A stretch of 64,000 bases of DNA from a virus. Lineage: Duplodnaviria > Caudoviricetes. The notes under the pieces were generated by a model. It made no database searches. It saw nothing but the letters and a program-made list of their open reading frames with translations, and was not told the DNA's origin. The translations under genes and the position numbers were made by a program. Every line of letters begins with the position of its first letter. Positions within the stretch are counted from its first letter, which is position 1. Positions 4,314 to 41,628 of this stretch are shown piece by piece. The DNA lies in IMG/VR virus record IMGVR_UViG_3300049988_000286, positions 32,001 to 96,000 of that record, one strand, 5' to 3'.

Positions 4314-4455
4314 GTCGGGGAAGCGCATGGAGGTCGTTCCTTCTTTGCATGATAAGCCCGAGGTTGCAGGTTCGAGCCCTGCCTCTCCAACCTGATGGAG
4401 GGTAGCTCAATTGGTAGAGCGCGGAAAAAATACGGTTCCGATTTGCTTCCCCGGC
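4314..4455 (+). ncRNA. circularly permuted tRNA-Ile(GAT)-like RNA (3' half precedes 5' half)
   Basis: 3' half GATAA-GCCCG-AGGTT-GCAGG-TTCGAGC-CCTGC-CTCTCCA-A (4351-4390) then 5' half TGGAGGG-TA-GCTC-AATTGGTA-GAGC-G-CGG (4396-4424); acceptor strands pair 7/7; flanks pair 11/11 (4314-4324 with 4445-4455). Confidence 0.7.
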
Positions 4456-4464
4456 CCTTGACCG

Positions 4465-4485
4465 AACTACCCCAGCGGGGTAGTT
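4465..4485 (+). terminator. perfect hairpin after the permuted RNA (terminator or processing site)
   Basis: AACTACCCC-AGC-GGGGTAGTT. Confidence 0.4.
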
Positions 4486-4658
4486 GAAGGCATGACCTAT
4501 ACCCAAACCGCTCCCGGTGGCGCGACGCGCGTTTTCGAGACCTTCATCGACGATGCGGGCTCGACGTGGCTGATCATCATCGAGGGGGAGGATCGGCATG
4601 AAATGTGCCTCAAGCCCAGCGATGTCATGGGTCTGGGGCGTATCTTGGGATTTGGGCG

Positions 4659-5144
4659 ATGAAGCCCCTCTGGCTTTATCGCCCGCTCCTCAACATTCGC
4701 CCGGTGCTGGAATTTGCGCAACGCGTTGGCGTCACCAAAGTGATGCCGCCCGAGCATCTTCATGCCACGCTCGCGACCGTCCGTCCCCCGTGCGACTGGG
4801 ATGACCTCGCACTCGAAACCGACGAGATCATCATCCCGGCGGGGATGAAGAAAATCCAGATTTTCGGCTTCCACGCCAAGGGACTGACCTTCGGCCACGA
4901 GCGGTTCTCCTCTCGCCATGCCGAGTTGGCGCGCCTCTACCCTGCGATGGATCACGCCTCGTTGCTGCGTCCCCACGTCACCCTCTACCGTGGGGGCAAG
5001 ATGCCGCGCGGAGATGTCGGCTACGAGGGTGAACTTGTTTTCGGTCCCGAGATCGCCGTTGAATTCGATGAGGTAGAAGCGCGTGGCATCAAGCACGTCA
5101 AACTCGCCGATTACCTTAATGCACGCGAGGACGCCTCGGTGTAG
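4659..5144 (+). CDS. 2H phosphoesterase, Acb1/T4 gp57B-like (anti-CBASS candidate)
   Basis: two HxT motifs (LHATL, PHVTL), P-x-D-W, and C-terminal G-E-L-V-F-G-P-E. Confidence 0.7.
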   Translation: MKPLWLYRPLLNIRPVLEFAQRVGVTKVMPPEHLHATLATVRPPCDWDDLALETDEIIIPAGMKKIQIFGFHAKGLTFGHERFSSRHAELARLYPAMDHASLLRPHVTLYRGGKMPRGDVGYEGELVFGPEIAVEFDEVEARGIKHVKLADYLNAREDASV

Positions 5145-5153
5145 GTTCGTGGT

Positions 5154-5759
5154 ATGACCATCAATCAAGAACTCGTCGTCTACGACGCCGCTCTCCGCGC
5201 TGACTCTACCCTTCACGATCAGATGATCGAGCATGGCGGTGTCTCCGCCCCTGTGCGGCACCTCGCCGGGGCTGATGTCCCAGATGAGTATTTCAGTGAG
5301 GCGATCAGCGCGATGGTGCAGGAGACCATCGTCATGCTGTTCTACGATCTCCACCGTGCTGCTCGACGACTACGACCCACTGCGACGCTGAATTGGTCGG
5401 CTACCTTCTCCGACGAGATAGAGCTTAAATCCATCCCGGCAAAGATGGTACTAACCGCCAAGGCCTTGAGCGATGATGCCATCTTCGTCGTATCTCCGAC
5501 TGTTCTCACGATCGTTCAGTCCGCTGGTGCATTGCAGCGAGTAGAGAATATGCGCCGCGACGAGAATGAATACTCGATCTCTGGTCACCGAGTATTCATC
5601 GACCCCTATGCTGATGATCAAGCAGCCATCATCGTGGCACAGCGGGGCTGGTTCCATTTCAGCAATGGTTCAATCCACAGTGATGGGCTCATGATGAAAA
5701 ACGACATCGTGACCTCGCTGGTCCCCGATCGTATTGCCATTATCGATCTGGTGCAGTAA
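5154..5759 (+). CDS. degenerate T4 gp23/gp24-like capsid paralog fragment
   Basis: FVVSPTV...SGHRVFIDPYADD resembles the gp23 C-terminal region; only 201 aa. Confidence 0.4.
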   Translation: MTINQELVVYDAALRADSTLHDQMIEHGGVSAPVRHLAGADVPDEYFSEAISAMVQETIVMLFYDLHRAARRLRPTATLNWSATFSDEIELKSIPAKMVLTAKALSDDAIFVVSPTVLTIVQSAGALQRVENMRRDENEYSISGHRVFIDPYADDQAAIIVAQRGWFHFSNGSIHSDGLMMKNDIVTSLVPDRIAIIDLVQ

Positions 5760-5794
5760 CGCCGTGGTGTTGCACCGGGCACCCCGAGATACGT

Positions 5795-5892
5795 GAGGCT
5801 AGCGTATGCAAGGTTTGAGAGAGGCTCCAAGCCCGGCCGATCAGGGATCAAATCCTGAACTGGAGCGGTTCGATTCCGTAGATGCTTCACCA
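5795..5892 (+). ncRNA. possible degenerate tRNA-like RNA
   Basis: GCGG-TTCGATT-CCGT T-arm, GAGGC/GCTTC partial acceptor, A-CCA end, two internal hairpins. Confidence 0.3.
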
Positions 5893-5930
5893 TTCCAAAT
5901 CGATCTCGGCATCGACGCCAATGGCCAGAT

Positions 5931-6078
5931 CATGCAATTCAGTGATTTTCAAAGGCAGAGATCGGCTGTCTTGCAATGGTGCAATGATAATTTACCCGCA
6001 GGGTCTTGGCGCTACGGCTACCAAGCGCTTTTACTCGATCGTGAGCAAGACTATATACTCTATACATTAAGCTTTTAG
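5931..6078 (+). CDS. small paralog-family protein (QWCNDNL...EQDYILYTLSF); start approximate
   Basis: family motif; start codon uncertain. Confidence 0.5.
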
Positions 6079-6174
6079 GAGGTTGTTTATGTCATCGCGG
6101 GACGCCGGTTAAGTAAAAGGTTTCAGAAGATCGCTCCCCTCTACGCGTATTTCGCGCGTGATTGGCAGCACTGT

Positions 6175-6480
6175 ATGGACTTCACCCCATACGCTCTGCA
6201 AGACCTCTACGTCTATGAGAGCACAGGTCGCGGTCATGTTTGCGCGTGCAACGGTTACGCACACGGCAAAAAGATGATGGATGTAAACCTCGCACAATGG
6301 CGCGAGGACATGTGGAAGACACTTTGGCCATGGGAACTCTACGAAGACCCCCATCTGCCTGATTGGTGGCTGGACAAAGTATTGGGGTTCGAGGGGAGTC
6401 GCCTCTATGGTGTTGACTCCCTTGATCGTCATCCTATACTTGGGACAGCACAGGTGCCGTCCATAGGTGAGACGGAATAG
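6175..6480 (+). CDS. hypothetical protein
   Basis: ORF. Confidence 0.6.
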   Translation: MDFTPYALQDLYVYESTGRGHVCACNGYAHGKKMMDVNLAQWREDMWKTLWPWELYEDPHLPDWWLDKVLGFEGSRLYGVDSLDRHPILGTAQVPSIGETE

Positions 6481-6491
6481 AGGGGGCGGAG

Positions 6492-7121
6492 ATGTTCGGA
6501 CAGTATCGCTCCCTTACCGTCAAAGAGGGACTCGGCTGGCTCAAGACTGGTGCCCCTTCACGCGAGACGATGCTCCTGCCGCACCCCACGGACTATTTCG
6601 ATCTCGACTTTGAGGAGCACGCATCCCGCTACAGGATGCGGGGTAGCTGGGTCCATACCTTGAGTTTCGCCATCCCCTGCCTTGAAGCGATGGAGTGCCT
6701 GAAGGCGCGTTCCGTTGTCGAGGTCGGCGCTGGGACTGGCTACTGGTCGTCCCTCATTGCCCTGCATGGCGGGGATATCATCGCGACCGATATCGAGACA
6801 GGCATATCAGGTTACCGGCACCACATCGGGGCCTTTCATGGTGTGGAGCAACTCTCCGCCACCGAAGCCGCTACCCGCTACCCGGATCGTGATGTCCTTA
6901 CCGTGTGGCCCAATTACGACGAGTCGTGGGCCTATGAGATGGCGTGCACGATTGAGGGAGATCGTCTGCTACATTACGTGGGTGAGGGTTACGGAGGCTG
7001 CACCGCCGACGATGATTTTCACACGCTGATGTCGCGAGAGTTCGATCAGATATCAGAGGTTGCAATTCCGCAGTGGGAGGGTATTCACGATTATCTGACC
7101 ACCTATCGGCGGAAGCGCTGA
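6492..7121 (+). CDS. class I SAM-dependent methyltransferase-like protein
   Basis: VVEVGAGTGYW motif I; GEGYGGCTADDDF. Confidence 0.7.
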   Translation: MFGQYRSLTVKEGLGWLKTGAPSRETMLLPHPTDYFDLDFEEHASRYRMRGSWVHTLSFAIPCLEAMECLKARSVVEVGAGTGYWSSLIALHGGDIIATDIETGISGYRHHIGAFHGVEQLSATEAATRYPDRDVLTVWPNYDESWAYEMACTIEGDRLLHYVGEGYGGCTADDDFHTLMSREFDQISEVAIPQWEGIHDYLTTYRRKR

Positions 7122-7123
7122 AC

Positions 7124-7199
7124 GGTCCCGAAGCTCAACTGGATGAGCGGCCGAATCCTAGTCGGAAGGTTGCGGGTTCGAGTCCCGCCGGGACCGCCA
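7124..7199 (+). tRNA. tRNA-Arg(CCT)
   Basis: cloverleaf GGTCCCG/CGGGACC, loop ATCCTAG, GTTCGAGTC, encoded CCA. Confidence 0.9.
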
Positions 7200-7349
7200 A
7201 CACGGAGAAGCATGTGGCGACGGCAACGATCACCTTGACGGTCACCGGTGACATCACCGATGTGCGCAGCCTTGAGACGCCCGCCCTCGCCGCGATGTTG
7301 GCCAAACTCCCCAATGTAGCGGAAGTGCAATGCACGGTTAGGATCGCGG

Positions 7350-7808
7350 ATGAAGATCACGAGTGAATCACCCGGAGACTTCGAATCTTCGATCGATCGC
7401 TTCTGCGAGCATCTCCTTACGCTTGAAGGGCCTCTCAAGGTCTCTGGATCGGTTCGGGTCTCTGATGGCCAAGCGACCCTCCTCGGGAGCATCGAACCCT
7501 ATCAGTCGATTCCGGGCTTTCAGTATTTCTACACCAAGGATTGGCCGTGTGGCGATCGTATCTTTGACGTGTCAGAGACGATCAACTTTCGCCTTCTCGA
7601 AGAGGGCAGGTTGGTTTGGTTCTGTATGCCCAGACAGCCACCGTGCACTCATGTCCTGACTCTCGTTTATGGCGTTTGGGCGCACAACAAAGAGCCGGTC
7701 CATAATCGCTTCGCTTTCCGGGGCAGCGACGAGGAGGCCTTTGTTCTCGCGCTCCAATACGGAGCACGCTTACAAAAGGCTTGCGACTTCTTTCGAACTG
7801 TGAGATAA
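7350..7808 (+). CDS. hypothetical protein ending in paralog-family motif
   Basis: ...FAFRGSDEEAFVLALQYG. Confidence 0.6.
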   Translation: MKITSESPGDFESSIDRFCEHLLTLEGPLKVSGSVRVSDGQATLLGSIEPYQSIPGFQYFYTKDWPCGDRIFDVSETINFRLLEEGRLVWFCMPRQPPCTHVLTLVYGVWAHNKEPVHNRFAFRGSDEEAFVLALQYGARLQKACDFFRTVR

Positions 7809-7880
7809 ACGCTTATCAGGAGAATAGGCATGAAGTACTGGATCGCCGACGCCCACTAGGTAACCTAGTGGAGAAAACCA

Positions 7881-8372
7881 ATGAACTACACCTACCCCCT
7901 CATCGCAACCTCGCGTAGCAATGAGACCCGCATCTTCCGTGATGCCGATACTTTTCTCGCATTCGCCCGTGACCGTCGCAACGGCGGCGTCGGGGCTTAC
8001 TGGCTAGAGGCTCGCGTCAACCTCTTCAGCGGGAAGAGCCCAAAGCTCTTCCGGGCCTCCGAAGGTGGTCTCTTCGATCGCTGGCGCGAGACCACTCGCA
8101 ACGAGTGGATCGTTCGCGACGATCGTGGTCGTGTTGTTGATCGCGCCGAGATCGCCGCCGCGAAGGGCGACGGTCCCCGTCGCTACTACCGCTACCGCGC
8201 GGATGTCGTCCTCGCTGCCAAGCTGGGGCTCCCCATCCCCGGCACGAGCAATCGTCGCGGTGGCAACAAGCGCTACAGCAAGAACGGGCGCAACGGCACC
8301 TACAACCGCGACAAGGGCCTGTTCCTCTTCGAGGACAACGAGATCGCTCGCGGCAACTTTACTGACCTCTGA
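7881..8372 (+). CDS. basic hypothetical protein
   Basis: GGAG SD, followed by a terminator. Confidence 0.75.
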   Translation: MNYTYPLIATSRSNETRIFRDADTFLAFARDRRNGGVGAYWLEARVNLFSGKSPKLFRASEGGLFDRWRETTRNEWIVRDDRGRVVDRAEIAAAKGDGPRRYYRYRADVVLAAKLGLPIPGTSNRRGGNKRYSKNGRNGTYNRDKGLFLFEDNEIARGNFTDL

Positions 8373-8373
8373 C

Positions 8374-8397
8374 AGGTGGCCTTCGGGCCACCTTTTT
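8374..8397 (+). terminator. intrinsic terminator
   Basis: AGGTGGCC-TTCG-GGCCACCT-TTTT. Confidence 0.85.
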
Positions 8398-8433
8398 CTT
8401 TACAGAGTTCGTTTCCCAGTATAGAGACAGGGT

Positions 8434-8784: not shown

Positions 8785-8808
8785 AAAGCCCGGAATCGCT
8801 TCCGGGCT
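8784..8808 (-). terminator. intrinsic terminator between convergent genes
   Basis: AGCCCGGAA-TCGC-TTCCGGGCT with an A-tract on the left. Confidence 0.7.
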
Positions 8809-8813
8809 CCTCG

Positions 8814-18203: not shown

Positions 18204-18794
18204 ATGTTGAATTTAGAGCACATGATGGAGCGATATGGAATAAAACTATTGGTGCTCTATCGTCGTTGCCATAATGGATATAATCGTGACCAGAACAGAA
18301 TAGCGATCTTCGAGTTTAGCGACTGGCGAGACATAGAGCGGCTCATCATGTGCGCCGACTACCCCTTCAAGCGGGGAGGGACTATCCTGAAGAGGATGAT
18401 TGGTGACGTTGATCGTGTCGGTCTCTTCCATACCAGCACGATTGATTACCTTTATGAGCGCTCGGCAAGTGTTGCCCCCGTCGAGTTCACGGTGTCATAT
18501 ACCTTGGTCAACCGCAGCTATATCGCGCGTGAGTATGACAACGTGATGATGTTGTTGGAGGGAGCATCGAAGGGTCAACAGAGCGGACGGCTCGCGCTGA
18601 TCACCAATAAGGATATGGCTGATGAACTCGATTGGCTCGGCGATTGGACTATCTGGATAAGCCCATCCTTCACCGCTGTAATCAAACTTTGGCCCTATCG
18701 TCGCATCGACGATCACGAACTCACGCTCTTTCGACTGCGCTGGGGACATTTGCTCCTTGCCCCGATGGAGAGTTCGAGTTACGCTGCGGTATGA
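18204..18794 (+). CDS. hypothetical protein ending in paralog-family motif
   Basis: DDHELTLFRLRWG. Confidence 0.65.
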   Translation: MLNLEHMMERYGIKLLVLYRRCHNGYNRDQNRIAIFEFSDWRDIERLIMCADYPFKRGGTILKRMIGDVDRVGLFHTSTIDYLYERSASVAPVEFTVSYTLVNRSYIAREYDNVMMLLEGASKGQQSGRLALITNKDMADELDWLGDWTIWISPSFTAVIKLWPYRRIDDHELTLFRLRWGHLLLAPMESSSYAAV

Positions 18795-19420
18795 ACCAAT
18801 TTCAAAAGCGCAAAGTCATCCTCCAGACTCTCCTTCAAGGGGAGGGCTACTATGATGCCTTGGCGGTGATGCACTACTGTGAACCTCACCACGCGGGAAC
18901 GCGCAAAGACGGGTTCACGCCCGAGTACTCCCACCAGATCAACATCGCGACCTTCGCCCTCGATCTTCCCGATCTCATGTATCGGCAGGACGTGATCGCA
19001 ACGATCTTCGGCCACGACACCAGCGAGGATGCTGGCCGGAAGTGGACGAAGATCGCCCGGCGGGTTCGTCGCTCCAAGAAGGCGCGCAAGCGTGTCGCTC
19101 GGGCGATCAAGAACATGACCAAGGAGTGGAAGGGTCAGCGCATCCCAGACGCTGATCTCTTCGCCAAGATGGCCCGCGATCCCGTCGCGTCGATCGCCAA
19201 GGGCTGCGACCGCATCCATAACCTGTCTTCGATGGTTGGTGTGTTCACGCCCGCGAAGCAGCGCGAATACATCCGGGAAGTCAGGGAGTTGTTCCTGCCG
19301 ATGCTCAAGCTGGCGCGGCGGCGCTTCCCCCATCAGGCGCGCGCCTACGAGATGATCAAGTTCGTCCTCATCTCGCAGATCACCCTGATCGAATCCGCCC
19401 TCAATGGAGCAGAGGCATGA
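18791..19420 (+). CDS. HD-domain hydrolase, RelA/SpoT (p)ppGpp-hydrolase-like
   Basis: H..TRKDG..PEYSH...GHDTSED...K.CDRIHN. Confidence 0.8.
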   Translation: MNQFQKRKVILQTLLQGEGYYDALAVMHYCEPHHAGTRKDGFTPEYSHQINIATFALDLPDLMYRQDVIATIFGHDTSEDAGRKWTKIARRVRRSKKARKRVARAIKNMTKEWKGQRIPDADLFAKMARDPVASIAKGCDRIHNLSSMVGVFTPAKQREYIREVRELFLPMLKLARRRFPHQARAYEMIKFVLISQITLIESALNGAEA

Positions 19421-20103: not shown

Positions 20104-20177
20104 CGCGAGGTGGTGAGATTAGTCCGTCCGGTTGCAAGCCGGGAGTAAGCTGGTGAAAGCCCCGGCCCCCGCGACCA
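20104..20177 (+). tRNA. degenerate tRNA-like gene, GCA anticodon
   Basis: CGCGAGG/CCCCGCG-A-CCA, TCCGG-TTGCAAG-CCGGG, T-loop TGAAAGCC, weak D-arm. Confidence 0.5.
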
Positions 20178-20185: not shown

Positions 20186-20262
20186 AGCGCTGTGTCCAGA
20201 GTGGTTATGGACTCTCCCCGCAAGGGAGAGATACGTGGGTTCGATTCCTCCCAGCGCTGCCA
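20186..20262 (+). tRNA. tRNA, GCA anticodon (Cys), atypical C33 and G73
   Basis: AGCGCTG/CAGCGCT-G-CCA; TCTCC-CCGCAAG-GGAGA. Confidence 0.7.
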
Positions 20263-20273: not shown

Positions 20274-20364
20274 GTGTCGGTGGCGGAGTCCGGCCGAACG
20301 CACAAGACTGCAAATCTTGCGAGGGCTTCCCTCCACGCCGGTTCAAATCCGGCCCGATGCTCCA
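20274..20364 (+). tRNA. tRNA-Cys(GCA) with long variable arm
   Basis: CAAGA-CTGCAAA-TCTTG, GAGGG-CTT-CCCTC V-arm, U73, CCA. Confidence 0.85.
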
Positions 20365-20980: not shown

Positions 20981-22570
20981 TTGCGGGATTCGCGAGTGCC
21001 TGATAATCGGAACATCGACAGCCGTGGTAACTTGGATCACACGGAAGCGCAAGGCTTCGATAGCGATCACAGCGACATCTTCTATGCGGCAATCCAGCGT
21101 TCGCGGATGCCGATGATCCTCACCGATCCTAATCGTCCAGACAACCCGATCGTGTTTTTCAACACGGCCTTCTCGACGCTCACTGGATACCCCCCGGAGG
21201 AAATCCTAAATCGCAACTGTCGCTTCCTGCAAGGGGAGGAGACGGATCGCGATAAGGTCGCCTATGTGGGTCAACAGATTCTCGCGGAGAAGGACTGCTC
21301 GGTAGAGTTGCTCAACTACCGCAAGGACGGCACCTCGTTCTGGAACGCGCTCTTCATCTCGCCCGTCTATGACAATGACGGTAAGCTCGCGTATTACTTC
21401 GCATCCCAGCTTGACGTTACCCGGCGGGTGAAGAGCGAGGAGTTGCTTCGCCAGACCCAGAAGATCGAGACGCTGGGACAACTCACCGGCGGCATCGCGC
21501 ACGACTTCAACAACATGTTGACCGTGGTGATGGGCAACCTCAACATGGCGCAGAACGCCATGGAGGTGAAGCAACCCGATCGCGTATCAGTTTACCTCGA
21601 TCGCGCCATGGCGGCAGCAAAGTCGAGCGATCGTCTCACCCAGCAGCTTCTCTCCTTCGCGCGCAAGCAGCGGATGACGACGGAGCGTCTCGATCTCAAC
21701 GAGGTGGTGCGTCAGGTGCAGACGATGTTCGAGCGCGTGCTCACCACGGGCATCTACGTCTCCGCCGAACTCACCAGTGATCCGTGGATGGTTTCCCTCG
21801 ATCCCAGCCACGCACAGAGCGCTTTCCTCAACGTGCTCCTCAACGCTCGCGATGCCATCCCGGCGACCGGGGGCTCGATCAAGCTACGGACGCGTAATCG
21901 CATCGTCGATGCCGAAAATCCCTTCTACGACCTCGCAGAGGGTGCGTATGTGGAACTCTCGATCGAGGATACCGGGTCGGGCATGTCGGAGGAAACGAAG
22001 ATGCGCGTCTTCGAACCTTTCTTCACCACCAAGGGTGTGGGTAAGGGCACCGGCATGGGGCTCGCCATGGTGCATGGCTTTGCCGACCAGTCCAACGCCA
22101 CCATCATCATCGAGAGCACCGAGGGCGTGGGGACAACGATCTCCTTCATCTTCCCCACCGATGACGCTCACGCCGTAGAGAGGGACCGCCACAGCGGATC
22201 ACGCATCCTTGTCGTGGAGGACAACCAGATGCTCCGCGAGACGACGGTGGATTTCCTGCGGATGCACGGATTCACAGTGCGGGATGTCGATAGCGCCGAC
22301 AGCGCGATCAAGGCACTCGACGGCGGATACGTCCCCGACATCCTGTTCAGCGATGTCGTCATGCCGGGGACGATGGACGGCTTCGGTCTCGGCCGCGTTG
22401 TCCGTGACCGCTTCCCCAGCGTTCACGTGCTGCTCAACAGCGGGTGGACAGATGGTCGCGAGAACAACGACGAGTTCGAGGTGATGAGCAAGCCGTACGA
22501 TCTCACCAAGCTGGCAAGCGTGTTGACGCGCATGAGCGATCTCGATCGCGACAAAGCGCACGAGGGCTAG
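20981..22570 (+). CDS. LOV-domain hybrid histidine kinase (LOV-HisKA-HATPase-REC)
   Basis: NRNCRFLQG LOV motif; GGIAHDFNN H-box; NARDA, DTGSGM, FFTTK, GTGMGL; LFSDVVMPG and KPY receiver. Confidence 0.92.
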   Translation: MRDSRVPDNRNIDSRGNLDHTEAQGFDSDHSDIFYAAIQRSRMPMILTDPNRPDNPIVFFNTAFSTLTGYPPEEILNRNCRFLQGEETDRDKVAYVGQQILAEKDCSVELLNYRKDGTSFWNALFISPVYDNDGKLAYYFASQLDVTRRVKSEELLRQTQKIETLGQLTGGIAHDFNNMLTVVMGNLNMAQNAMEVKQPDRVSVYLDRAMAAAKSSDRLTQQLLSFARKQRMTTERLDLNEVVRQVQTMFERVLTTGIYVSAELTSDPWMVSLDPSHAQSAFLNVLLNARDAIPATGGSIKLRTRNRIVDAENPFYDLAEGAYVELSIEDTGSGMSEETKMRVFEPFFTTKGVGKGTGMGLAMVHGFADQSNATIIIESTEGVGTTISFIFPTDDAHAVERDRHSGSRILVVEDNQMLRETTVDFLRMHGFTVRDVDSADSAIKALDGGYVPDILFSDVVMPGTMDGFGLGRVVRDRFPSVHVLLNSGWTDGRENNDEFEVMSKPYDLTKLASVLTRMSDLDRDKAHEG

Positions 22571-22992: not shown

Positions 22993-23026
22993 TTATGGCC
23001 CCTCATGTTGCCATGAGGGGCCATAA
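22993..23026 (-). terminator. 15-bp perfect hairpin closing the long non-coding region
   Basis: TTATGGCCCCTCATG-GCAA-CATGAGGGGCCATAA on the minus strand. Confidence 0.6.
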
Positions 23027-25067
23027 ATCCAGTAGCGTGAGACTATCACCACTGGTGCTTGATCGCACAGTCATTATCCCGTTGCCGAAGCGCGGGGTTC
23101 TACTGCTTGTCCTCGACCGAAGTCGCCACCAAGCGTCACCACACCAATCGTTACCCACTGGTGCCGTGGGGCATCCACAAACGATATCGGCAATCTTACG
23201 ACTACCGAACACCAGACCATGTGCTGATCTCGTGCTCCTCATTCTCCAAAGAGTGAGGAATTAGGTGACTCCCGTTCGTGGAGAACGGCTACTTCTGCAT
23301 TGCTCGCCCGCCGGTCCTATTTCGTCACCCGGAGGCGACATTCCTATAACCGTCGTGCGCGTCATCGGACGCTGCCTCTATCTCGGCTCCGACTTGCGTC
23401 GGAATACCTTCTCGCCCTCTATCAGCGGTTGCTCGCTGATCAATCCTTCGGACGACGTGGCTCCGTCACCCTCTGGACTGCCGATCCCACCCTTGTATGC
23501 CTACTCGGGCGCTTGGAGGAGCGCAGCGATGCTACACTCCGATCCGCGACTCGCGTCGCTGATTGACCGACTACTGGTTGACCGACTTGTGGGCGTATAA
23601 AGCGACAAGGAGCGGATGCTTATCCCCGACTTCCACTGACCTGTTTCTCCCGCGAGCGGGCATCGAGCCAGTGATTACTTCCCTTGTATCTACGCCGTCG
23701 AGGTCTGTTCCCCCTGACTTGCGTCAACAGAAACTCCCTCACGGGTGGTCCCAGCTTGCATAGATGAACCCCTGTGGCGTGACCCACACAGGCCCAAGGC
23801 TATGACCCCTGCCTTGGCTTACCAGCGGTTACCCGCTCGTTGCTCATTAGACTGCGCTACACCGCAGTATCGCGATCAAGCATCACCTGATCTCCACCCA
23901 ACACTTGCCGGGCTTCACAGACCTTGCGAGAGGCTGATTGCGGATTTTCCAGAGATACCGGCGAGATGGACACGATCCTAGAACCGCATCAGACAATTCG
24001 CCGGTATCCCTGCGGAACCGACTTTCATCGATCCCGATCTTTCAAGCACGGTTTGAGCGCTCCCGCGAAGGCGCGTTCGGACTTCCTCAACCGCGAGGTA
24101 TTGGAAGGCTTGGCAGTTTTCACCGCCGTTCACCGTGCTTGTGGTATCCGAGTAAACCCGGAGACCAAATTTCCGGAGAGGATTTTGCTACCGCAGCCCC
24201 GCAAAGGATTACAGCAGAATCGGCCTCTCCGTGGACCGGACCGAAGTCCTGCCCAAGATTTCAGGAGTTCTCATCTCAACTTCGGCGATGAAGGCATGGT
24301 GACCCGGCCATCGTCCTCGGTAGTAAGTCACTCCTGCGGTCCCGACCGAAGTCTGAACCGATTTTCCAAGGAGCCGCCTCGGTCATCCTGCGCTACATCG
24401 TATGACCGATATCCGCTCTGGCTGTCCTGCGCACTCCTTGTGGTAGATGTTCTCAACCTAAGTCTCGATCACCACCAATCTCGTGAGCGTTTGTTCCGCT
24501 CTGGAACCCTGATACTCAAACCCGAGGGTGAGCGTCAAGAAGTTTTTTCGAAGGGGATGACCAACCGAAGTTGATCATCCCGCTTCTGGATCAAGGCCTA
24601 GACCTCAACCCGTCTTTCGAGGTTGGTTTAGCGACACCGCCGTTTTCACGGCTGTGATCCAACCTCGCGGCGACAAGGGGTGAACCCAACGAACCACCCT
24701 TGCAACCGAACTTCCGGAGGGGACGGGGAGGTGAGCGTGCTTTTCAGCATATTCTCCGCCTTCCGGGCGAGGGTCGGCGGACCCCTCCGTGGCGCGACGC
24801 CGAAGCATCGTTGCCGTTTTCCGAGGATGACCAGCATGATACCGAAGTATCTTACCCGCCATCCTCGCGGTCAGGGATTTTCGACTCTGCTCGAAAGCAT
24901 CATCTACGGTCCCTTGACCGATCTCGTAAACTGATTGCCCCGAAGGGCTGTCAAAGAGCAGTATCGACCGAGGCCTATACTTCGGAAGCATCTCGGTAGT
25001 GAGTCATTCAACTCTCTACTTCAATCTAGGTTCCGCCGTTTGTCTTCGGCAGCGCCTCGTTTCCGTT
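22993..25067 (-). ncRNA. candidate giant structured non-coding RNA (or RNA cluster), ~2.1 kb
   Basis: no credible CDS; at least 8 C(UUCG)G and several GNRA hairpins on the minus strand; bounded by promoter and terminal hairpin. Confidence 0.7.
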
Positions 25068-29177: not shown

Positions 29178-29707
29178 AGTTCGTCAAGCTTGGCACCAAG
29201 CATCAGGTGCTACCCAGTAATGATGAGCAGCGCAGCAATCTGCTGAAACTCGCCCACCATCTCGCCGCCTTGGAGAACACTTACTCGCACTTTCACATGG
29301 GATTCTACTTCCTCGCGCAAGCCGATGACACTGTTGCCGATTGGCGTCTCCGCGAGGGCATCGACGAGGACGGTCTCGACAACATGTTCGAGGTGAAGGT
29401 GCAGGAGAACTCGTTCGAGGCTCGCATCGGTCAGTGCGGAGCGGTCGCGTGCGCGATCGGGCACGGCCCCCTCGCAGGAATTCCCGAGTCCAGCGACGAT
29501 TGCGATTGGGACGACTACGCCGTTCGGGTATTCGGCGTCGATGCTTCTCGGTCGGGGTCGTTTCTTTTCGGCTGCGAATGGACACAGACGGCCAACACTG
29601 CTCATGAGGCTGCGGAGCGCATCTTCTACGCACTCGAACACGGAGTCCCCTGTGAGGGGGACTATTTCCACTTGGACTACTTCCACGAAGAAGTTGTCCG
29701 CGTTTAG
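29174..29707 (+). CDS. hypothetical protein
   Basis: coupled; VACAIGHGP. Confidence 0.7.
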   Translation: MKFVKLGTKHQVLPSNDEQRSNLLKLAHHLAALENTYSHFHMGFYFLAQADDTVADWRLREGIDEDGLDNMFEVKVQENSFEARIGQCGAVACAIGHGPLAGIPESSDDCDWDDYAVRVFGVDASRSGSFLFGCEWTQTANTAHEAAERIFYALEHGVPCEGDYFHLDYFHEEVVRV

Positions 29708-30240
29708 TCGTCGTCCATCTGCTTCGCTTGGGCGTCTGCGAATAGCTGGTGAAGAAATGGGTCGTCTTTATGTTTGATGACCCAATGCTGGAAGAGGCCG
29801 CGCGCAGAATTACAGCGATGACATGACGGGACTAAATTGGCTAATTCGTTATTCAATTTGTCACCGTCGAGGTGATCAACGTGTATTCCCGAACGTCCTG
29901 ACCATTCGAGCGATTTACCACACCAACGACAACTATGCGACCCTTCGCCAATCGCATCGTACAATACACGTCGATGCTTGTAAACGAAACCGCTCGTAGT
30001 TGCTAGCGGATGATCCGGTCGTGATTGCCATACATATCCATGGCTACTGACACGTTCGGACTCTCCTCTCACGTGAAGCGTGAGCAGTGGATCGCCATGG
30101 CGCTTGAAGCGCGAATAATGTTTATGGCAAAAACCTTTGCCGATGCGATTACTTTCACATCCCTCTACCGAACAGAGGGCCGGTGTCTTCAATGGGGCTC
30201 TGCGTATTCTCTTACCTGATTTTGGAATTCCCTCGGGCAT
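29704..30240 (-). CDS. HNH endonuclease (homing-type)
   Basis: CSVEGC, CRWC, HVDHLDGDKLNN...CHRCN. Confidence 0.85.
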   Translation of the reverse strand: MPEGIPKSGKRIRRAPLKTPALCSVEGCESNRIGKGFCHKHYSRFKRHGDPLLTLHVRGESERVSSHGYVWQSRPDHPLATTSGFVYKHRRVLYDAIGEGSHSCRWCGKSLEWSGRSGIHVDHLDGDKLNNELANLVPSCHRCNSARGLFQHWVIKHKDDPFLHQLFADAQAKQMDDD

Positions 30241-36171: not shown

Positions 36172-36259
36172 TGGTTCTCCCCCGAGGACTCGAACCTCCA
36201 TCCCTTACGAGAGCCCACGATTCAGAGCCGTGTCGCCTTACCAGTTAGCGGAGGGGAGA
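36172..36259 (-). tRNA. tRNA with CTG (Gln) anticodon on a long-variable-arm, Leu-like body
   Basis: TCTCCCC/GGGGAGA-A-CCA; CACGG-CTCTGAA-TCGTG; V-arm TCTC-GTAA-GGGA. Confidence 0.85.
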
Positions 36260-36268: not shown

Positions 36269-36342
36269 TGGATCGGGCGACAGGGATCGAACCTGTATTG
36301 TGAAGGCCAAAACTTCATGTCCTGCCATTAGACGACGCCCGA
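36269..36342 (-). tRNA. tRNA-Gln(TTG)
   Basis: TCGGGCG/CGCCCGA, TGAAG-TTTTGGC-CTTCA, CCA. Confidence 0.9.
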
Positions 36343-36488
36343 GCACAGGCGTCCGCGCGGACGCCGCTTCAGCGTTGCTGTCGTTGGGCCTCGAAGGGCA
36401 GCAGGGCGTGTGAATTGGTCACGAGTTATTTATCTCACAGTGTGCGCGGCGTTGTCAACAATCTTTTTCAACCACGATAAATATCGCC

Positions 36489-37651: not shown

Positions 37652-37678
37652 GGAGGCGTGCTACCACCCCCATATCAG

Positions 37679-37963
37679 TTAGGCAATTTCTTCCCGCAGG
37701 AGTCGATCGAGATAGTTCTGGAAGCTATCGGCGAGGACGCTCCAGACCCAGTAGTGCTCTCCCAGCCGAGCATCGCTCGCCCCCATGGTGGCACGCATCT
37801 GCGTCTCGCGCTCGTAGTTGTGCCCCTCCTCGTTGTCGTAATTGCCGTGATAGGCGGTCTCGCGATGAACCCCGTAGGCCTTGACGAGATCGCGCGGCTT
37901 GATCTTCATCACGCCATAGTAGGTGTTCTGCTTGAGATAGCGCTTTGCGAGGTCGAGATACAT
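37679..37963 (-). CDS. hypothetical protein
   Basis: ORF MYLDLAKRY. Confidence 0.65.
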   Translation of the reverse strand: MYLDLAKRYLKQNTYYGVMKIKPRDLVKAYGVHRETAYHGNYDNEEGHNYERETQMRATMGASDARLGEHYWVWSVLADSFQNYLDRLLREEIA

Positions 37964-37964
37964 A

Positions 37965-38153
37965 TCACTGCGCCCACTGGCGCGCGAGCGAGTCGCGCTG
38001 CTGCCGAAGGTGGAAGAGGAAGTTGCTCGCCTCCACTTCACCAGCATCCAAGCGGGCGAGACCCTCGAAGACGAAGCGCAGCGTTTCCGCCGCATCCTTG
38101 ATCTGGCGGATGGTGAGGGTCTCGGGATTGAACGGGATCGGGTTGGTGGCCAT
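37965..38153 (-). CDS. small hypothetical protein
   Basis: AAGGA SD. Confidence 0.6.
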   Translation of the reverse strand: MATNPIPFNPETLTIRQIKDAAETLRFVFEGLARLDAGEVEASNFLFHLRQQRDSLARQWAQ

Positions 38154-38210
38154 CAGGGCTTCCTTTCGCCCCAGACCTACACCGAACTACTCTACTCGTC
38201 AAATCAATAT

Positions 38211-38339
38211 TGTCGCGAACCGGACTCGACACCGGCTGTTCGGTTTCGTCTTACTCAACCCTCGCGGGTTGGTCGGGGATCGAACCCGTTACAAACCTAC
38301 CAACTGACGTACGGGCGTGTCCTTCCACGCTGCCGCGAC
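38211..38339 (-). ncRNA. tRNA-like RNA with expanded anticodon domain and an internal second T-arm
   Basis: GTCGCGG/TCGCGAC acceptor, GCGT-GGAAGGAC-ACGC D-arm, GCCGG-TGTCGAGT-CCGGT T-like arm, 78-nt insert with CGGG-TTCGATC-CCCG. Confidence 0.7.
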
Positions 38340-38399
38340 GCCCTCGTAGTAGCGCTATGCGATATTGTCGTCAACGGTTTATTGCTCTACTTCGATGGG

Positions 38400-38627
38400 A
38401 TGAACCGAACGCCTTTCCGTATCGAGACGCAAGAACTGACCCGTTGGTCGGGCGAGCGGCTTGAGTTGAAAGAACCCTATGGCTCTTGGTGCAGGGACAA
38501 CATTGGCGGCATAGGGTTCGAGATTTGGTTCTGTCACGATTGGAACCGGCTCCGCACAACCCTTTATCTCGCCTCCGAGGAAGACCTGACCCTGTTCCGA
38601 ATTCGCTTTCCCGAGGTTGCAGAATGA
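38400..38627 (+). CDS. small paralog-family protein
   Basis: SWCRDNIG...EEDLTLFRIRF. Confidence 0.7.
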   Translation: MNRTPFRIETQELTRWSGERLELKEPYGSWCRDNIGGIGFEIWFCHDWNRLRTTLYLASEEDLTLFRIRFPEVAE

Positions 38628-38893
38628 TCATCCCTTATAGTGAGGCAACGCTGATCCTCTTCCAGTTCACGAAAGAAAAATCGGGCTTCTACGCGTTCGC
38701 GCTCGCGAGCAAAGCGAAGGAGTGGTGTAAAGCTTCACTGGGCTATGAGCCCGATTTGTCAGAATGCGACGCGGATGACGGGGGTTGCATCACCTTTCGT
38801 GATCAGCATGACGCCGACCTTTTCCGCTTCGCTTTCGCGGAGCACATCATCAGGGTTGAAGATAGTTCGCCGATGTGCGAAGACGAGGAATGA
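38624..38893 (+). CDS. small paralog-family protein
   Basis: EWCKASLG...QHDADLFRFAF. Confidence 0.7.
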   Translation: MIIPYSEATLILFQFTKEKSGFYAFALASKAKEWCKASLGYEPDLSECDADDGGCITFRDQHDADLFRFAFAEHIIRVEDSSPMCEDEE

Positions 38894-39126
38894 CCCACGG
38901 CCTCGACTGCACGCGATCCGCCTTCGTGGTGCATCTCTTCCACTCCATCGACGATCCCGTCCCCGCCGTGGTGCCCCGCTCCGGTCTCGCGGAGTGGGCG
39001 ATGGAGCAATTTGGCTACATCCCCACGGGCGAGGTGATCCAAGGTCGCCCGCACCTCATCTTCCGTTTCGCCGAAGACGCGACGCTGTTCCGCCTTCATT
39101 TCGCACACCTCTGGGGACGAGAGTGA
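38890..39126 (+). CDS. small paralog-family protein
   Basis: EWAMEQFG...EDATLFRLHF. Confidence 0.7.
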   Translation: MTHGLDCTRSAFVVHLFHSIDDPVPAVVPRSGLAEWAMEQFGYIPTGEVIQGRPHLIFRFAEDATLFRLHFAHLWGRE

Positions 39127-39404
39127 TCAGGATCGAGTTCAACTTCGTGCGTGGCCTCACTGGCTATCGCAGCGACCGCGATAGTCCATGGGGGTTGCTC
39201 CACTCGGTGGAGGATTGGTGCCAAGAGGTGCTCGGCTATCTACCGCAACTCTCCCGCAGTCAGGAGAACAATACGGCAGACGGTCGCTCACTCTCCTACT
39301 ATCTCTCGTGCTCGTTCCACGACGAGACCGATGCATGGTTGTTCTACCTCAACTACCGCGCGAATTTCATGCAAGCGCTCCACTTCGAGACCGAATACGC
39401 TTGA
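39123..39404 (+). CDS. small paralog-family protein
   Basis: DWCQEVLG...ETDAWLFYLNY. Confidence 0.7.
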   Translation: MIRIEFNFVRGLTGYRSDRDSPWGLLHSVEDWCQEVLGYLPQLSRSQENNTADGRSLSYYLSCSFHDETDAWLFYLNYRANFMQALHFETEYA

Positions 39405-39436
39405 TCAATTGAGTAGTTCGGTGTAGAGGGCGAATC

Positions 39437-40156
39437 ATGTCTCGCTTCTACAGCCCTTGGGAAATTGAACGACTTGGCGAAGCCATCGGCAATTGGTCGA
39501 TTGGCAACACGTCGCTCTACGATCGCATCGACGCCCTTGAGAAGGCGCGGGATGATTCGAGTGAGTATGACGATCGCCTGTTCACGATCGGGCGTCCGTT
39601 CCGCGATGGCGGCGAATACATGTACGAGGTAGTGGCCACCCCGCTGTTCGATTACATGCTGGAGGGAGCGGGCTTCGACATCTGGTGGGATTGTCAGCGG
39701 ATGGACTATTCCCTCAATGCGACGCTGAAGGACGGGGAGCGGGCACTGGAACGCCTGATGATCCGGGACGCAACGGCGCGCAAGATGGAGGAAAACATCA
39801 CCGAGTGGCGCATCTATTGGCCCAAGAGCAAACGCGTCGTCGAATTCCAGCAGCGCTTCTCTGCGTGGCTGGAAGCGCTTGTTCCCACGCCTCTGACTGG
39901 GCTAGGCGCGGCTGGTACCTTCTGCACAAAGGAGCACGCGCTCTCCGTTCTTCGCGGGGAGACGAACACGATCATCGAAGCACCGGAGTGCAGTGAGTTC
40001 CAGCGTGAACAACTCCTCTCGCTGCTATCACAATACGGGGGCTATTGGCCCAATGATGCTGCGCTTGATGACATGCACACCTGCATGACCCTCGACATGA
40101 TCGAGCGCGAACGCGTCCATGATCGCGGGCGAGTCTCTTATAGGAAAGTCCTCTGA
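39437..40156 (+). CDS. hypothetical protein
   Basis: promoter TTGATC-N17-TAGAGG at 39401-39429. Confidence 0.75.
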   Translation: MSRFYSPWEIERLGEAIGNWSIGNTSLYDRIDALEKARDDSSEYDDRLFTIGRPFRDGGEYMYEVVATPLFDYMLEGAGFDIWWDCQRMDYSLNATLKDGERALERLMIRDATARKMEENITEWRIYWPKSKRVVEFQQRFSAWLEALVPTPLTGLGAAGTFCTKEHALSVLRGETNTIIEAPECSEFQREQLLSLLSQYGGYWPNDAALDDMHTCMTLDMIERERVHDRGRVSYRKVL

Positions 40157-41367
40157 TGCCACGGATCACTGCATGGAAGAGCACGGAGACGGGCACGATC
40201 TTCGAGCACGAGAGCGACTACCGCGCTCATCTCGACGGCCTCGCCAAGATCAAGGAAACGGAGGCACGGCACCGCGACGCGCTGGTAAAGGCAGACGAGG
40301 CGCTGGCGTCTCTCTACCTGTGTCGTTCTCACGGCGAAATCGCGGCATGGCTGATCGAGAACAGTGACGCCTTTATCGAAGCGCAAATCGCGCGGGGACA
40401 CTTTCGTGAGTGGCGAGGGCCGCGCCGTAAGAAGCTGCGCTTCACCGAGGTGACCTTCGAACAGATACGCTGGGAAGGCGACCTCTCAAATTCACACTCG
40501 AATCCCATGGGGCGAGTATCAAACTGGGGTGGATGCCTCCCCGAAGCACCGCGTTCCTATCCCGGCTGGTCGTCGAGAATACGGTTTCGGCTCAATCGAG
40601 AGATCGATACCTTCAGTTCTGATCTCTTTCGCGGCACTGGTATCCATCCCGGCACCGGCGGAAGCGGGGATTACGATTGCAAGCTGTTCGCCGACGACTT
40701 CCCCGCCATGCGGGCGTGGGAGAATCGTGCTAATCCGCGACTGCGGCAGCGCAAGAACGGCGCTGTCATTGTTGACGAGCGAACCGTCGCGATCTCGGAG
40801 ATCATCTCCTCACCGTCATCGAGAGATGGGATAATGGTTCGTCGCGGCGACCTCTTCATCCCGATTGAGAAGTCGGATCGTCCTCTCCCCTCCACGATCG
40901 ACCAGTGGCTCCGCGACCACGTGGGTTGGGACGACAACCATGAGACAGATCATGACCGCTTCATCTACGATCGCGGACCAACGGGTCCAGCGGTGCCGAT
41001 CGGTGACCTTCCCGGTCCGCGTCGGCGCTACTCCTACGACGCCGAGCGACAAACCATTTTCTTCCACGACATCCGCGATGCTCGGAAGTTCAGGGCAGTG
41101 TTTGGCAACCTTATCAACAACGCGCGGCTAATCAACTACCGGCATGGGGACGAAACCGCGCGCGCTTTTCTGCTCTCACATCAGGACGTGGCTTACCATT
41201 CCGTCTGTTCGATTTGGGGTGAGACCGATCTCGGTCATGACCGCACAGGGCACTGGAACCTCTTCCGCGACGAGCAGGAGCGGCTGATGTTCCAGATCGT
41301 TCGTCCCGAAGCGGTGTTCTTTTACGCGGCCGATCTCGATATTGCACAACGGGGCACAGGTGTGTAA
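40156..41367 (+). CDS. hypothetical protein with C-terminal paralog-family modules
   Basis: QWLRDHVG...FFHDIRDARKF; DEQERLMFQI. Confidence 0.75.
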   Translation: MPRITAWKSTETGTIFEHESDYRAHLDGLAKIKETEARHRDALVKADEALASLYLCRSHGEIAAWLIENSDAFIEAQIARGHFREWRGPRRKKLRFTEVTFEQIRWEGDLSNSHSNPMGRVSNWGGCLPEAPRSYPGWSSRIRFRLNREIDTFSSDLFRGTGIHPGTGGSGDYDCKLFADDFPAMRAWENRANPRLRQRKNGAVIVDERTVAISEIISSPSSRDGIMVRRGDLFIPIEKSDRPLPSTIDQWLRDHVGWDDNHETDHDRFIYDRGPTGPAVPIGDLPGPRRRYSYDAERQTIFFHDIRDARKFRAVFGNLINNARLINYRHGDETARAFLLSHQDVAYHSVCSIWGETDLGHDRTGHWNLFRDEQERLMFQIVRPEAVFFYAADLDIAQRGTGV

Positions 41368-41400
41368 GGTCGCGGCCTGATGTTCTCTATAACTGGGGAG

Positions 41401-41536
41401 GGTGTCATGTGAAGGTTGTTTGGGGCTTATTACAGTCCATCTAACGGCTGGTGTAATGGCCAGTCTATCGACCGTGGGAGGTGGTGACCCACCAGTAGTA
41501 ATATTGTATGCACCATGGGGGCGGGGAACCGCCCCC
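41401..41536 (+). ncRNA. possible small structured RNA
   Basis: GGTG(T)CAT/ATGCACC and TATTAC/GTAATA stems, two hairpins, then GGGGGCGG-GGAA-CCGCCCCC. Confidence 0.3.
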
Positions 41537-41546
41537 TAAATAGTAC

Positions 41547-41628
41547 GGGCTAGTATCGCCGCCGTTTTCTAAACGGTCGTTAAAAGCGTAATTGGAGTAT
41601 GCGGGTTCGAGTCCTGCCTAGCCCGCCA
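41547..41628 (+). ncRNA. D-armless tRNA-like RNA, TCT (Arg) anticodon, long variable region
   Basis: GGGCTAG/CTAGCCC-G-CCA; GCCGT-TTTCTAA-ACGGT; GCGGG-TTCGAGT-CCTGC; starts 4 nt after TAAATA. Confidence 0.7.

Follow-up and report, generated by a model that had tools for sequence, protein, structure and literature searches.

Unusual tRNA-like loci of a jumbo phage: probably a mixed set of working, non-decoding and doubtful RNAs

Results

We analysed a 64,000-nt window (bases 32001-96000) of a 499,572-bp jumbo phage record, in which a preliminary description had grouped eight atypical tRNA-derived loci into a single repertoire of RNAs that keep the elbow and acceptor shape and could serve as decoys for host tRNA-targeting defences. 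Our data indicate that these loci are probably a mixed set rather than one decoy repertoire, with three apparently working tRNAs, two non-decoding RNAs and three doubtful elements. A tRNA-like element is present at each of the eight positions, and the two tRNAs described as plainly canonical are indeed ordinary. The features discussed below, named by their first position, are the following:

4314..4455, plus strand: YrlA-like RNA (Rfam YrlA, 38.3 bits, E 7.6e-5)
5795..5892, plus strand: orphan tRNA-like element (from sequence; no Rfam match)
7124..7199, plus strand: ordinary tRNA-Arg(CCU) (ARAGORN; Rfam, 52.6 bits)
20104..20177, plus strand: degenerate GCA tRNA with A73, G38 and one acceptor mismatch (from sequence)
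20186..20262, plus strand: GCA tRNA with C33, G38 and G73 (Rfam, 35 bits)
20274..20364, plus strand: tRNA-Cys(GCA) with a long variable arm, U33 and U73 (Rfam, 48.7 bits)
36172..36259, minus strand: tRNA-Gln(CUG) with a long variable arm, U1-A72, A73 and CCA (ARAGORN; identity table)
36269..36342, minus strand: ordinary tRNA-Gln(UUG) (ARAGORN; Rfam, 55.3 bits)
36369..36422, minus strand: 17-codon leader ORF with tail CAA CGA CAG CAA CGC, upstream of both Gln tRNAs
38211..38339, minus strand: tRNA-framed RNA of 129 nt (core homologues; promoter spacing)
41547..41628, plus strand: rewired tRNA-Arg(UCU) (homologues, covariation, identity bases, promoter motif)

Genome context and tRNA census

A canonical RF00005 cloverleaf combines a 7-bp acceptor and a D hairpin with an anticodon arm (5-bp stem, 7-nt loop, U33), a T arm and CCA. 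This fold is found at 7124, 36269, 20274 and 36172, and is not attained by 41547, 20186, 20104, 5795, 4314 and 38211. Perfect T-arms number 5 in the window, versus 0.41 in shuffles, and those with at least 4 pairs number 14, versus 3.5. Rfam returned 39 tRNA matches above cut-off in the 499.6-kb genome; ARAGORN run with a lowered threshold returned 951, almost all of them noise. The statement that atypical forms outnumber normal tRNAs holds in the window but not genome-wide, where ordinary cloverleaves (~29) are the majority, next to ~10 class I tRNAs with long variable arms and ~12 other unusual forms; the unusual forms are thus a large minority, about 40%.

The phage encodes a CysRS with intact zinc- and anticodon-binding residues, a class I synthetase of Leu/Met type, a class II synthetase that is a SerRS and not a ThrRS, and a CCA-adding-type enzyme; RtcB, ArgRS and Glu/GlnRS were looked for in the genome and not found. 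A blastn search with the Cys region gave no match, and no related loci were reached through the topoisomerase, by which the closest cultured phages are Atu_ph07 and Phosso (55% identity). The proteins encoded upstream of 5795 and 20104 have either no relatives or relatives at just 40-54%. As no close phage relative was found, conservation per arm could be measured against distant phages only.

A rewired tRNA-Arg

The locus at 41547 has no D hairpin. Instead, CGC at positions 11-13 pairs with a GCG lying behind the anticodon arm, and a displaced D-loop ending in GGA comes next; the RNA ends in G73-CCA, and a TAAATA motif stands 4 nt ahead of its first base. Matches of at least 80% identity to this locus occur in 268 phage records. 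All 22 of 22 sequences form the three pairs that replace the D stem, and each of these pairs varies on both strands; the covariation score was reached by none of 500 shuffles (controls slid along the sequence pair in at most 47%, versus 98%); since the homologues are mutually related and were partly picked by anticodon- and T-loop patterns, these counts are not independent. With a pattern blind to the anticodon, 21 of the 22 rewired matches still carry Arg anticodons.

The base that follows GG is A in all 18 Arg members, which were not selected for it, and U in all 11 Ile members, which also all carry A73; this A20 and discriminator pattern matches published identity sets (PMC9976931). The tRNA-Arg identity set (A20, C35, U/G36, A/G/U73) is found complete at 41547, in the GGA of the displaced loop, the UCU anticodon and G73, and we infer that the displaced A occupies position 20 in three dimensions. 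The anticodon region, supposed to have diverged in these loci, is conserved where this can be tested: column identity in the family is 97% in the anticodon loop, on a par with the T-loop, and lowest in the acceptor sequence (58%). The locus is probably a working, Arg-decoding tRNA with an unusual fold. The AGA codon is rare in this phage (2.1 per 1000), so that codon demand does not explain its presence. A literature search, mostly without subscription journals, returned no description of such a rewired class.

tRNAs with long variable arms

In 20274 and 36172 the D and anticodon arms are normal, and the oddity is a long variable arm. Among the three GCA loci, 20274 alone has the Cys identity (GCA with U73), and U73 is present in 10 of 10 genuine long-arm GCA tRNAs from the loci fetched. 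Long-arm Gln tRNAs occur in other phages (5 of 122). Across our identity table, from which Met and the second Asn were left out, the long-arm genes carry the bases cognate to their anticodons: U73 for Cys, U1-A72 for Gln, U1-A72 and G73 for Asn, G73 for Arg and A73 for Ile. For 36172, A73 and the long arm are also compatible with LeuRS, and the phage SerRS reads long arms. Judged by their identity bases, both loci are probably working tRNAs of the cognate kind. They are not allo-tRNAs, which have an 8/4 or 9/3 branch as defined in PMC5389517; both have the normal 7/5 branch.

The leader ORF ahead of the Gln tRNA pair begins 4 nt downstream of a TAAATA promoter motif; of all TAAATA-to-ATG spacings in the genome, this one is the most frequent, with 75 cases. 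Three of its last five codons are Gln (P 3e-4 for the stretch, 0.014 for the whole ORF), with CAA as well as CAG. No leader with Cys codons was seen ahead of the Cys cluster.

GCA tRNAs lacking U73

The Cys determinant U73 is replaced by G73 in 20186 and by A73 in 20104. The anticodon loop of 20186 recurs in Sinorhizobium phage Phosso and locus L344, both with A73, and in L296 and L293, with U73. GCA tRNAs with G38 lack U73 in 6 of 8 cases, versus 3 of 85 in the comparison set, or in 5 of 6 versus 2 of 84 once chance and misread matches are dropped. This phage, Phosso and RpAliso each have such a tRNA in addition to a U73 tRNA-Cys. On its sequence, 20186 falls into a small accessory class, made up of GCA tRNAs that have G38 and mostly no U73, and would be either charged by the phage CysRS or uncharged. 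We disfavour a GNRA tetraloop in place of its anticodon loop: in every homologue the 5-bp stem closing a 7-nt loop is fully paired, while the tetraloop register breaks.

The neighbouring 20104 lacks the D-loop GG, has an 8-nt T-loop (UGAAAGCC) and was missed by both ARAGORN and Rfam. Its nearest relative is a normal U73 tRNA-Cys (E 0.18), and it looks like a tRNA-Cys that has lost part of the D-loop. Upstream, the GCA gene at G000:30779 likewise has no CCA.

Two tRNA-shaped RNAs without decoding

The RNA at 4314 is a tRNA body in circular permutation: a T arm comes first, then a 7-bp acceptor that a loop seals, then a D arm, all within an 11-bp end-to-end stem. Its fold z is -3.25, and a promoter-like TTGCCC-17-TATCAC stands ahead of it; a homologue is present in Ruegeria phage RpAliso. 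In the order of its T, acceptor-like and D stem-loops, and in the long terminal stem that encloses them, it follows the YrlA Y RNAs (RF02553; Chen et al. 2014, PMC4201824). It differs from them in scoring below the Rfam cut-off (38.3 versus 69 bits), in having no Ro-binding motif GNCGAAN0-1G near the 5' end, where the strand reads GGGGAAG and that of RpAliso GAGTGAAG, and in the lack of a recognisable partner gene in the genome, which gave neither a PF05731 match for Ro60/TROVE nor a phmmer match to Ro60-like proteins of other phages. RpAliso likewise yielded no Ro60/TROVE gene. It is possible that the partner is very divergent or host-encoded. A 726-aa protein common to both phages was considered for this role and rejected, as it resembles Prok-RING/TerD-cluster proteins. 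None of the 45 matches to a pattern for the 4314 subfamily proved to be another member. By its architecture, 4314 is a conserved non-decoding tRNA-shaped RNA, and its function would follow from that shape.

The RNA at 38211, preceded by a promoter-like TTGACG-17-TACTAC, has a conserved pseudoknotted core (38242-38311) made of a D-loop-like AGTTGGT, a 4-bp T arm, a sealed acceptor-like stem and two crossing helices, without an anticodon arm. Five homologues of the core were found, in Rhizobium phage RHph_Y65, Klebsiella phage VLCpiM5a, L249, L575 and L587; helices a and b covary among them, and the core occurs in both normal and permuted gene order. The core is a non-decoding tRNA-body module in its architecture, from which we infer its function. 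We did not find it described in a literature search covering few subscription journals. The closest likeness is to T4 rnaC (species 1 RNA), a stable small RNA from the T4 tRNA cluster with no known role (PMC12685909), which shares two short motifs with the core, GTAAGCC and a TAA right before a T arm; both are small RNAs lying amid tRNA genes or phage genes. As nhmmer searches of this genome with rnaC or rnaD gave no match, homology to rnaC would be putative.

An orphan element

The element at 5795 has a 5-bp acceptor, a long D-side hairpin, UCA in an 8-nt hairpin loop, a 4-bp T stem and an ACCA end in a 13-nt branch register. Elements like it arise in 1.5% of shuffled windows under criteria set after the fact, and a search for homologues found none. 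A tRNA-Sec has a 13-bp acceptor-T branch, a 7-nt UCA loop, a long variable arm and G73. The 13-nt register and the UCA of 5795 are present, but with 9 branch pairs, an 8-nt loop, no variable arm and A73 we reject this assignment, against which the missing Rfam match also counts. Its identity as an allo-tRNA was rejected too.

Discussion

We propose that 20274, 36172 and 41547 would be charged and would decode, as their conservation, covariation and identity bases suggest, within a set of ~45 tRNA genes that may be produced late in infection and could sustain translation once host tRNAs run short or are cleaved. With an extra arm or a re-threaded D-arm, they probably show tRNA nucleases an altered surface while keeping the synthetase determinants, which might confer nuclease resistance. 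The 4314 RNA and the 38211 core may present their elbow to some protein or to enzymes that process tRNA, and 4314 may act in the manner of a Y RNA. The RNA from 20186 would be charged by the phage's own CysRS or not at all. For 20104 and 5795, the likeliest reading is that they are copies in decay.

A repertoire of decoys would keep the elbow and acceptor shape to bind host nucleases that target tRNA, or proteins that sense it, and so titrate them. The pattern on which that idea was built, a diverged D or anticodon region next to intact acceptor and T arms, is seen in part in 20186 and 41547 and not in the other six: the acceptor is loop-sealed in 4314 and the 38211 core and down to 5 pairs in 5795, which has lost most of it, and 20104 has lost the elbow GG. 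Shape kept without decoding describes 4314 and 38211 well, as 4314 and the 38211 core are conserved and have the D-loop GG and the T-loop but no decodable anticodon arm; it does not describe 41547, 20274 and 36172, three of the eight loci, whose anticodon loops are kept with anticodon-matched identity bases. The G38 GCA tRNAs, mostly without U73, and the Acb1-like phosphoesterase gene directly downstream of 4314 would also suit a decoy. Our analysis gave no evidence of a decoy function. A literature search for phage tRNA-like decoys in anti-defence, covering few subscription journals, returned nothing, and the tested phage tRNA counter-defences that we reviewed act by replacing the cut host tRNA (PMC11464382, PMC11555353, PMC12445682), a change of anticodon having abolished rescue in the evasion of retron Eco7 (PMC11555353). 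We therefore consider a decoy repertoire of all the atypical loci unlikely; confined to the non-decoding RNAs (4314, 38211) and the GCA tRNAs of the 20186 class, the idea is a tentative possibility. One might speculate on a counter to tRNA-targeting immunity at two levels, with working tRNAs, rebuilt by an added arm or a re-threaded D arm, that nucleases miss and anticodon-less or unchargeable tRNA bodies (the 38211 core, the Ro60-less Y-like RNA and the non-U73 GCA tRNAs) that soak up nucleases or sensors, a combination that we regard as doubtful.

Random decay of redundant tRNA genes is very improbable for the set. The preliminary description had favoured selection over decay, and this stands for 41547, 38211, 4314, 20186, 20274 and 36172, with homologues or genes of the same design in unrelated phages and compensatory pairs; compensatory changes and wide spread (41547, 38211, 4314, 20186) and, at 4314, 38339 and 41547, promoter-like elements whose register is exact all argue against decay. 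It does not extend to 5795 and 20104, for which no close homologue was found and which may be in decay: for these two alone the chances are about even, given that 20104 is like a tRNA-Cys minus part of its D-loop and that the GCA gene at G000:30779 has no CCA. Purposeful mischarging, in which a SerRS- or LeuRS-like enzyme would place Ser or Leu on Cys and Gln anticodons of the long-arm and non-U73 tRNAs and so alter decoding in infection, can draw on the long arms, which are SerRS and LeuRS determinants (PMC9976931, PMC5389517), on the phage SerRS and Leu/Met-type synthetase, and on A73 in 36172 and G73 in 20186. It is nevertheless very improbable, as the long-arm genes keep cognate and not Ser or Leu determinants, with U73 in 10 of 10 long-arm Cys genes, and as the phage's own proteins would be corrupted by it.

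It is established that phage tRNAs which resist cleavage serve as replacements in the cases of PARIS (T5 tRNA-Lys; PMC11464382), retron Eco7 (tRNA-Tyr; PMC11555353) and OLD (tRNA-Thr against P2-OLD; PMC12445682), and an anticodon-loop hypothesis has been put forward for phage tRNAs (PMC10264068). As here, these tRNAs are phage-encoded, have host-type identity bases with altered stems or loops, and belong to large sets in lytic phages. They are ordinary cloverleaves with point changes, whereas the changes described here affect the architecture, through an extra arm or a re-threaded D arm, and the resistance is putative. Long variable arms on anticodons other than Ser, Leu and Tyr are also known from allo-tRNAs, selC* tRNA-Cys and (8/4) tRNAs, and irregular tRNAs from phages of alpha-proteobacteria (Mukai et al. 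2017, PMC5389517); in the accessible text of that paper, the rewired D arm of 41547 is not among the forms given, and the 7/5 branch of 20274 and 36172 sets them apart from allo-tRNAs.

As this case shows, some of the tRNAs in phage sets are overlooked or wrongly named by standard tools. The 38211 core is a small tRNA-body fold that lacks an anticodon, is conserved and occurs in two groups of cultured phages. A D-arm re-threaded behind the anticodon arm, with anticodon-matched identity bases, occurs in hundreds of phage records, including the cultured E. coli phages Felixounavirus, Justusliebigvirus and Asteriusvirus, where annotation mostly misses or mislabels it. Such a tRNA would widen the range of forms tolerated by bacterial ribosomes and synthetases.

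The tRNA complement of the phage genome

tRNA-like features are present at all eight listed loci, and perfect T-arms in the window (5, against 0.41 in shuffles) are well over chance. The preliminary description held that atypical forms outnumber normal tRNAs, which fails genome-wide: classes assigned gene by gene comprise about 29 ordinary cloverleaves, against about 10 class I tRNAs extended by a long variable arm and some 12 genes that are unusual in other ways. Unusual forms are a large minority of the set, and the main tRNA clusters flank the window. Over the whole 499,572-bp record (57% G+C), of which the window covers bases 32001-96000, Rfam gave 39 tRNA matches over cut-off and ARAGORN 41 tRNA calls plus one tmRNA. 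The ARAGORN call of tRNA-Leu(CAG) at window 29857-29932 (-) is probably false, as it lies inside an ORF (29704-30240), without a proper T-loop or Rfam match. Val-GAC (G000:25982-26057, G000 being the full record) and Ala-GGC (G000:29033-29108), with T-loop variant GGCAGAA, are detected by Rfam and missed by ARAGORN. Rfam has no match across about 2 kb of the window (22993-25067). Two CUA-anticodon tRNAs with A33 or C33 occur at G000:102238-102314 (+) and 106351-106425 (-); CUA-type tRNAs are likewise present in Sinorhizobium phage Phosso, where one lies between the genes for CysRS and SerRS, and TAG is the stop of 18 of 132 long ORFs in this phage.

Sequence and protein searches found no close relative of the phage. 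Its topoisomerase II shares 55% identity with the enzymes of two jumbo phages, Agrobacterium Atu_ph07 and Phosso, a relatedness that points to an alpha-proteobacterial host. ArgRS, Glu/GlnRS and RtcB were looked for in the genome and not found; the tRNA enzymes that it does encode are:

G000:23541-25127, SerRS
G000:29283-30596, class I Leu/Met-type synthetase, 438 aa
G000:98857-99225, CCA-adding-type enzyme
G000:493212-494084, CysRS

Unusual tRNAs that probably decode

At an identity of 80% or above, the gene at 41547, a rewired tRNA-Arg(UCU), has matches in 268 phage records, mostly without annotation or mislabelled there, from phages of E. coli, Salmonella, Klebsiella, Streptomyces and Rhodococcus. 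In all 22 aligned members, the three bases 3' of U8-A9-U10 pair with three behind the anticodon arm, and both sides of each replacement pair vary. No shuffle reached the pairing score of this helix, and slid controls pair at 47% at most, versus 98%. A D-loop-like motif follows the helix, directly before the T arm. In the fetched loci, a general detector recovered 87 rewired genes, almost all of which carry Arg or Ile anticodons, and an anticodon-blind pattern recovered Arg anticodons in 21 of 22 rewired matches. The base 3' of GG is A in 18 of 18 Arg members, which were not selected for it, and U in all 11 Ile members, which also all carry A73; members are related and partly chosen by pattern, so that these counts overstate independence. 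A20 is the chief determinant for Arg, and A73 is one of those for Ile (PMC9976931). The anticodon region, described earlier as diverging, does the reverse here: column identity reaches 97% for both the anticodon loop and the T-loop, compared with 92% for the displaced loop and 58% for the acceptor stem. As far as sequence can tell, this is the pattern of a charged tRNA. TAAATA lies 4 nt before the gene, the commonest TAAATA-to-start-codon spacing in the genome, which holds a second rewired tRNA, Arg-CCG (G000:26889-26979, +). A Tyr tRNA that lacks the usual D hairpin occurs at G000:443301-443384 (+), and an Smr-domain protein gene (window 41630-42079, -) converges on the 3' end of 41547.

The Cys gene 20274 and the Gln(CUG) gene 36172 are 7/5 cloverleaves of normal build, complete with U33 and CCA, to which a variable arm is added. 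Identity bases are kept (U73 and U1-A72, respectively), as are cognate bases in the genome's other reliably readable long-arm genes. The design is common in phages, accounting in the fetched loci for 7 of 82 Cys, 5 of 122 Gln and 14 of 117 Asn tRNAs; all 10 genuine long-arm GCA tRNAs have U73. Before 36172 and the ordinary Gln(UUG) gene, a 17-codon ORF starts 4 nt after TAAATA and has CAA, CAG and CAA among its last five codons. Codons read by the ordinary and by the atypical tRNA are both present in this putative leader, in keeping with a decoding role for the two.

GCA tRNAs without U73

The GCA gene 20186 has C33, G38 and G73, and its anticodon loop recurs in Phosso and three viral contigs, with paired changes in the stems. 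A discriminator other than U was found in 6 of 8 GCA tRNAs with G38 versus 3 of 85 without it (raw counts), or 5 of 6 versus 2 of 84 once two chance matches and one misread Ala tRNA were removed, an association that rests on few lineages. This phage, Phosso and Ruegeria phage RpAliso each have a U73 tRNA-Cys in addition; CysRS is encoded by the first two and absent from RpAliso. The phage CysRS retains the zinc ligands and, when aligned with its E. coli counterpart, also the Arg and Asp residues that bind the anticodon. The non-U73 GCA RNAs would be either charged by a relaxed phage enzyme or left uncharged, and they appear the best decoy candidates among the cloverleaves.

Its neighbour 20104 no longer has the D-loop GG, and its T-loop is 8 nt long, so that the standard elbow, which the atypical loci were said to keep, is not retained; its sole relative is a normal tRNA-Cys (E 0.18). 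A fourth GCA gene just upstream of the window (G000:30779-30849, +; C33, G38, A73, without CCA) is misread as Ala by ARAGORN. An HD-domain protein (Pfam HD_4; window 18632-19420, +) lies upstream of the Cys cluster, with a PAS-HisKA-HATPase-receiver hybrid histidine kinase nearby (20981-22570, +); an HWE/GAF kinase lies at about G000:16002-17219.

RNAs probably without a decoding role and an orphan element

The predicted fold of 4314 (z -3.25) has a long terminal stem around a T arm, a 7-bp loop-sealed acceptor and a D arm; as written, this RNA cannot decode. This stem-loop order is that of YrlA, whose definition also asks for a GNCGAAN0-1G motif and, close by, a gene for Ro60 (PMC4201824). 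The motif is absent from 4314, no TROVE gene is detectable in this phage or in RpAliso, and the Rfam YrlA score (38.3 bits) is under the cut-off of 69; 4314 falls outside the class but is predicted to work like a YrlA. Its RpAliso homologue shares the 5' motif, with changed stem sequences. A second permuted module (T arm, sealed stem, D arm) lies just upstream of the window (about G000:31060-31190, +), and such modules occur in many viral contigs (L123, L129, L138, L146, L164, L182, L213, L220, L224 and others); among the records tested, three encode TROVE proteins, as does Phosso. About 150 nt downstream of 4314, a 2H phosphoesterase (window 4605-5144, +) matches anti-CBASS Acb1 (Pfam PF23474, 33 bits, over cut-off). 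A 726-aa Prok-RING/TerD-cluster-like protein (G000:384444-386621, -) is encoded 350 kb from 4314; in RpAliso, its homologue (E 9e-33) follows the Y-like RNA at a distance of about 400 nt.

The tRNA-framed 38211 RNA (129 nt, minus strand, 38339-38211) is preceded by 6 nt by TTGACG-17-TACTAC, a spacing identical to that at 4314. Only its inner 70 nt are conserved, with homologues in Rhizobium phage RHph_Y65, in Klebsiella phage VLCpiM5a and in three contigs, one of them a viral contig of 455 kb. This core is built of a D-loop-like AGTTGGT, TAA, a T arm of 4 bp and an acceptor-like stem, which a loop seals in four copies; the other two leave it open and have the normal gene order (the L587 copy, with GTGA in place of GTAA, was classed as permuted by eye). 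Two crossing helices show paired changes: the first is GTC/GAC in 38211, GGC/GCC in three homologues and GAC/GTC in one; the second, GGTTT/AAACC here, is GTGTG/CACAC or AGCGC/GCGCT elsewhere. Rfam has no match; short motifs resemble T4 rnaC, to which a search detected no homology. No copy has an anticodon hairpin, and among the listed loci this one best fits the proposed elbow without anticodon.

The 5795 element combines a 5-bp acceptor, a long hairpin, an 8-nt loop containing UCA, a T stem of 4 bp and a terminal ACCA. By criteria chosen post hoc, 1.5% of shuffled windows contain something comparable, and no homologue was found. A decayed opal or Sec-like tRNA gene is the likeliest identity of 5795.

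One repertoire or a mixed set

A single decoy repertoire spanning all the atypical loci would suit 38211 and perhaps 20186, but sits poorly with the charged-tRNA pattern of the 41547 family and the lost elbow of 20104, and we consider it unlikely. Deliberate mischarging, for which the non-U73 GCA RNAs might speak, is improbable when identity bases are kept in the long-arm genes; general decay, plausible for 20104 and 5795, is slightly more improbable still, given the paired changes in 20186, 41547 and 38211.

Phages are known to counter PARIS with a non-cleavable T5 tRNA-Lys (PMC11464382), retron Eco7 with a tRNA-Tyr whose anticodon is required (PMC11555353) and OLD with a tRNA-Thr (PMC12445682), and replacement of a lost tRNA by a phage tRNA has been generalised (PMC10264068); our literature search found no paper on tRNA-like decoys in phages. 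Drawing on this published counter-defence by replacement and on the lack of a decoy precedent, we favour, with reasonable confidence, a mixed set. We found no paper on the rewired tRNA class or the 38211 core in a searched literature that is thin in subscription journals. The repertoire as originally framed is not one feature, and its parts are variants of kinds already known. Under the mixed-set reading, 20274, 36172 and 41547 would be working tRNAs that nucleases may overlook on account of their shape, 20186 would be either charged or uncharged, 20104 and 5795 are probably decaying, and 4314 and 38211 would be non-decoding tRNA-body modules with putative interaction partners.
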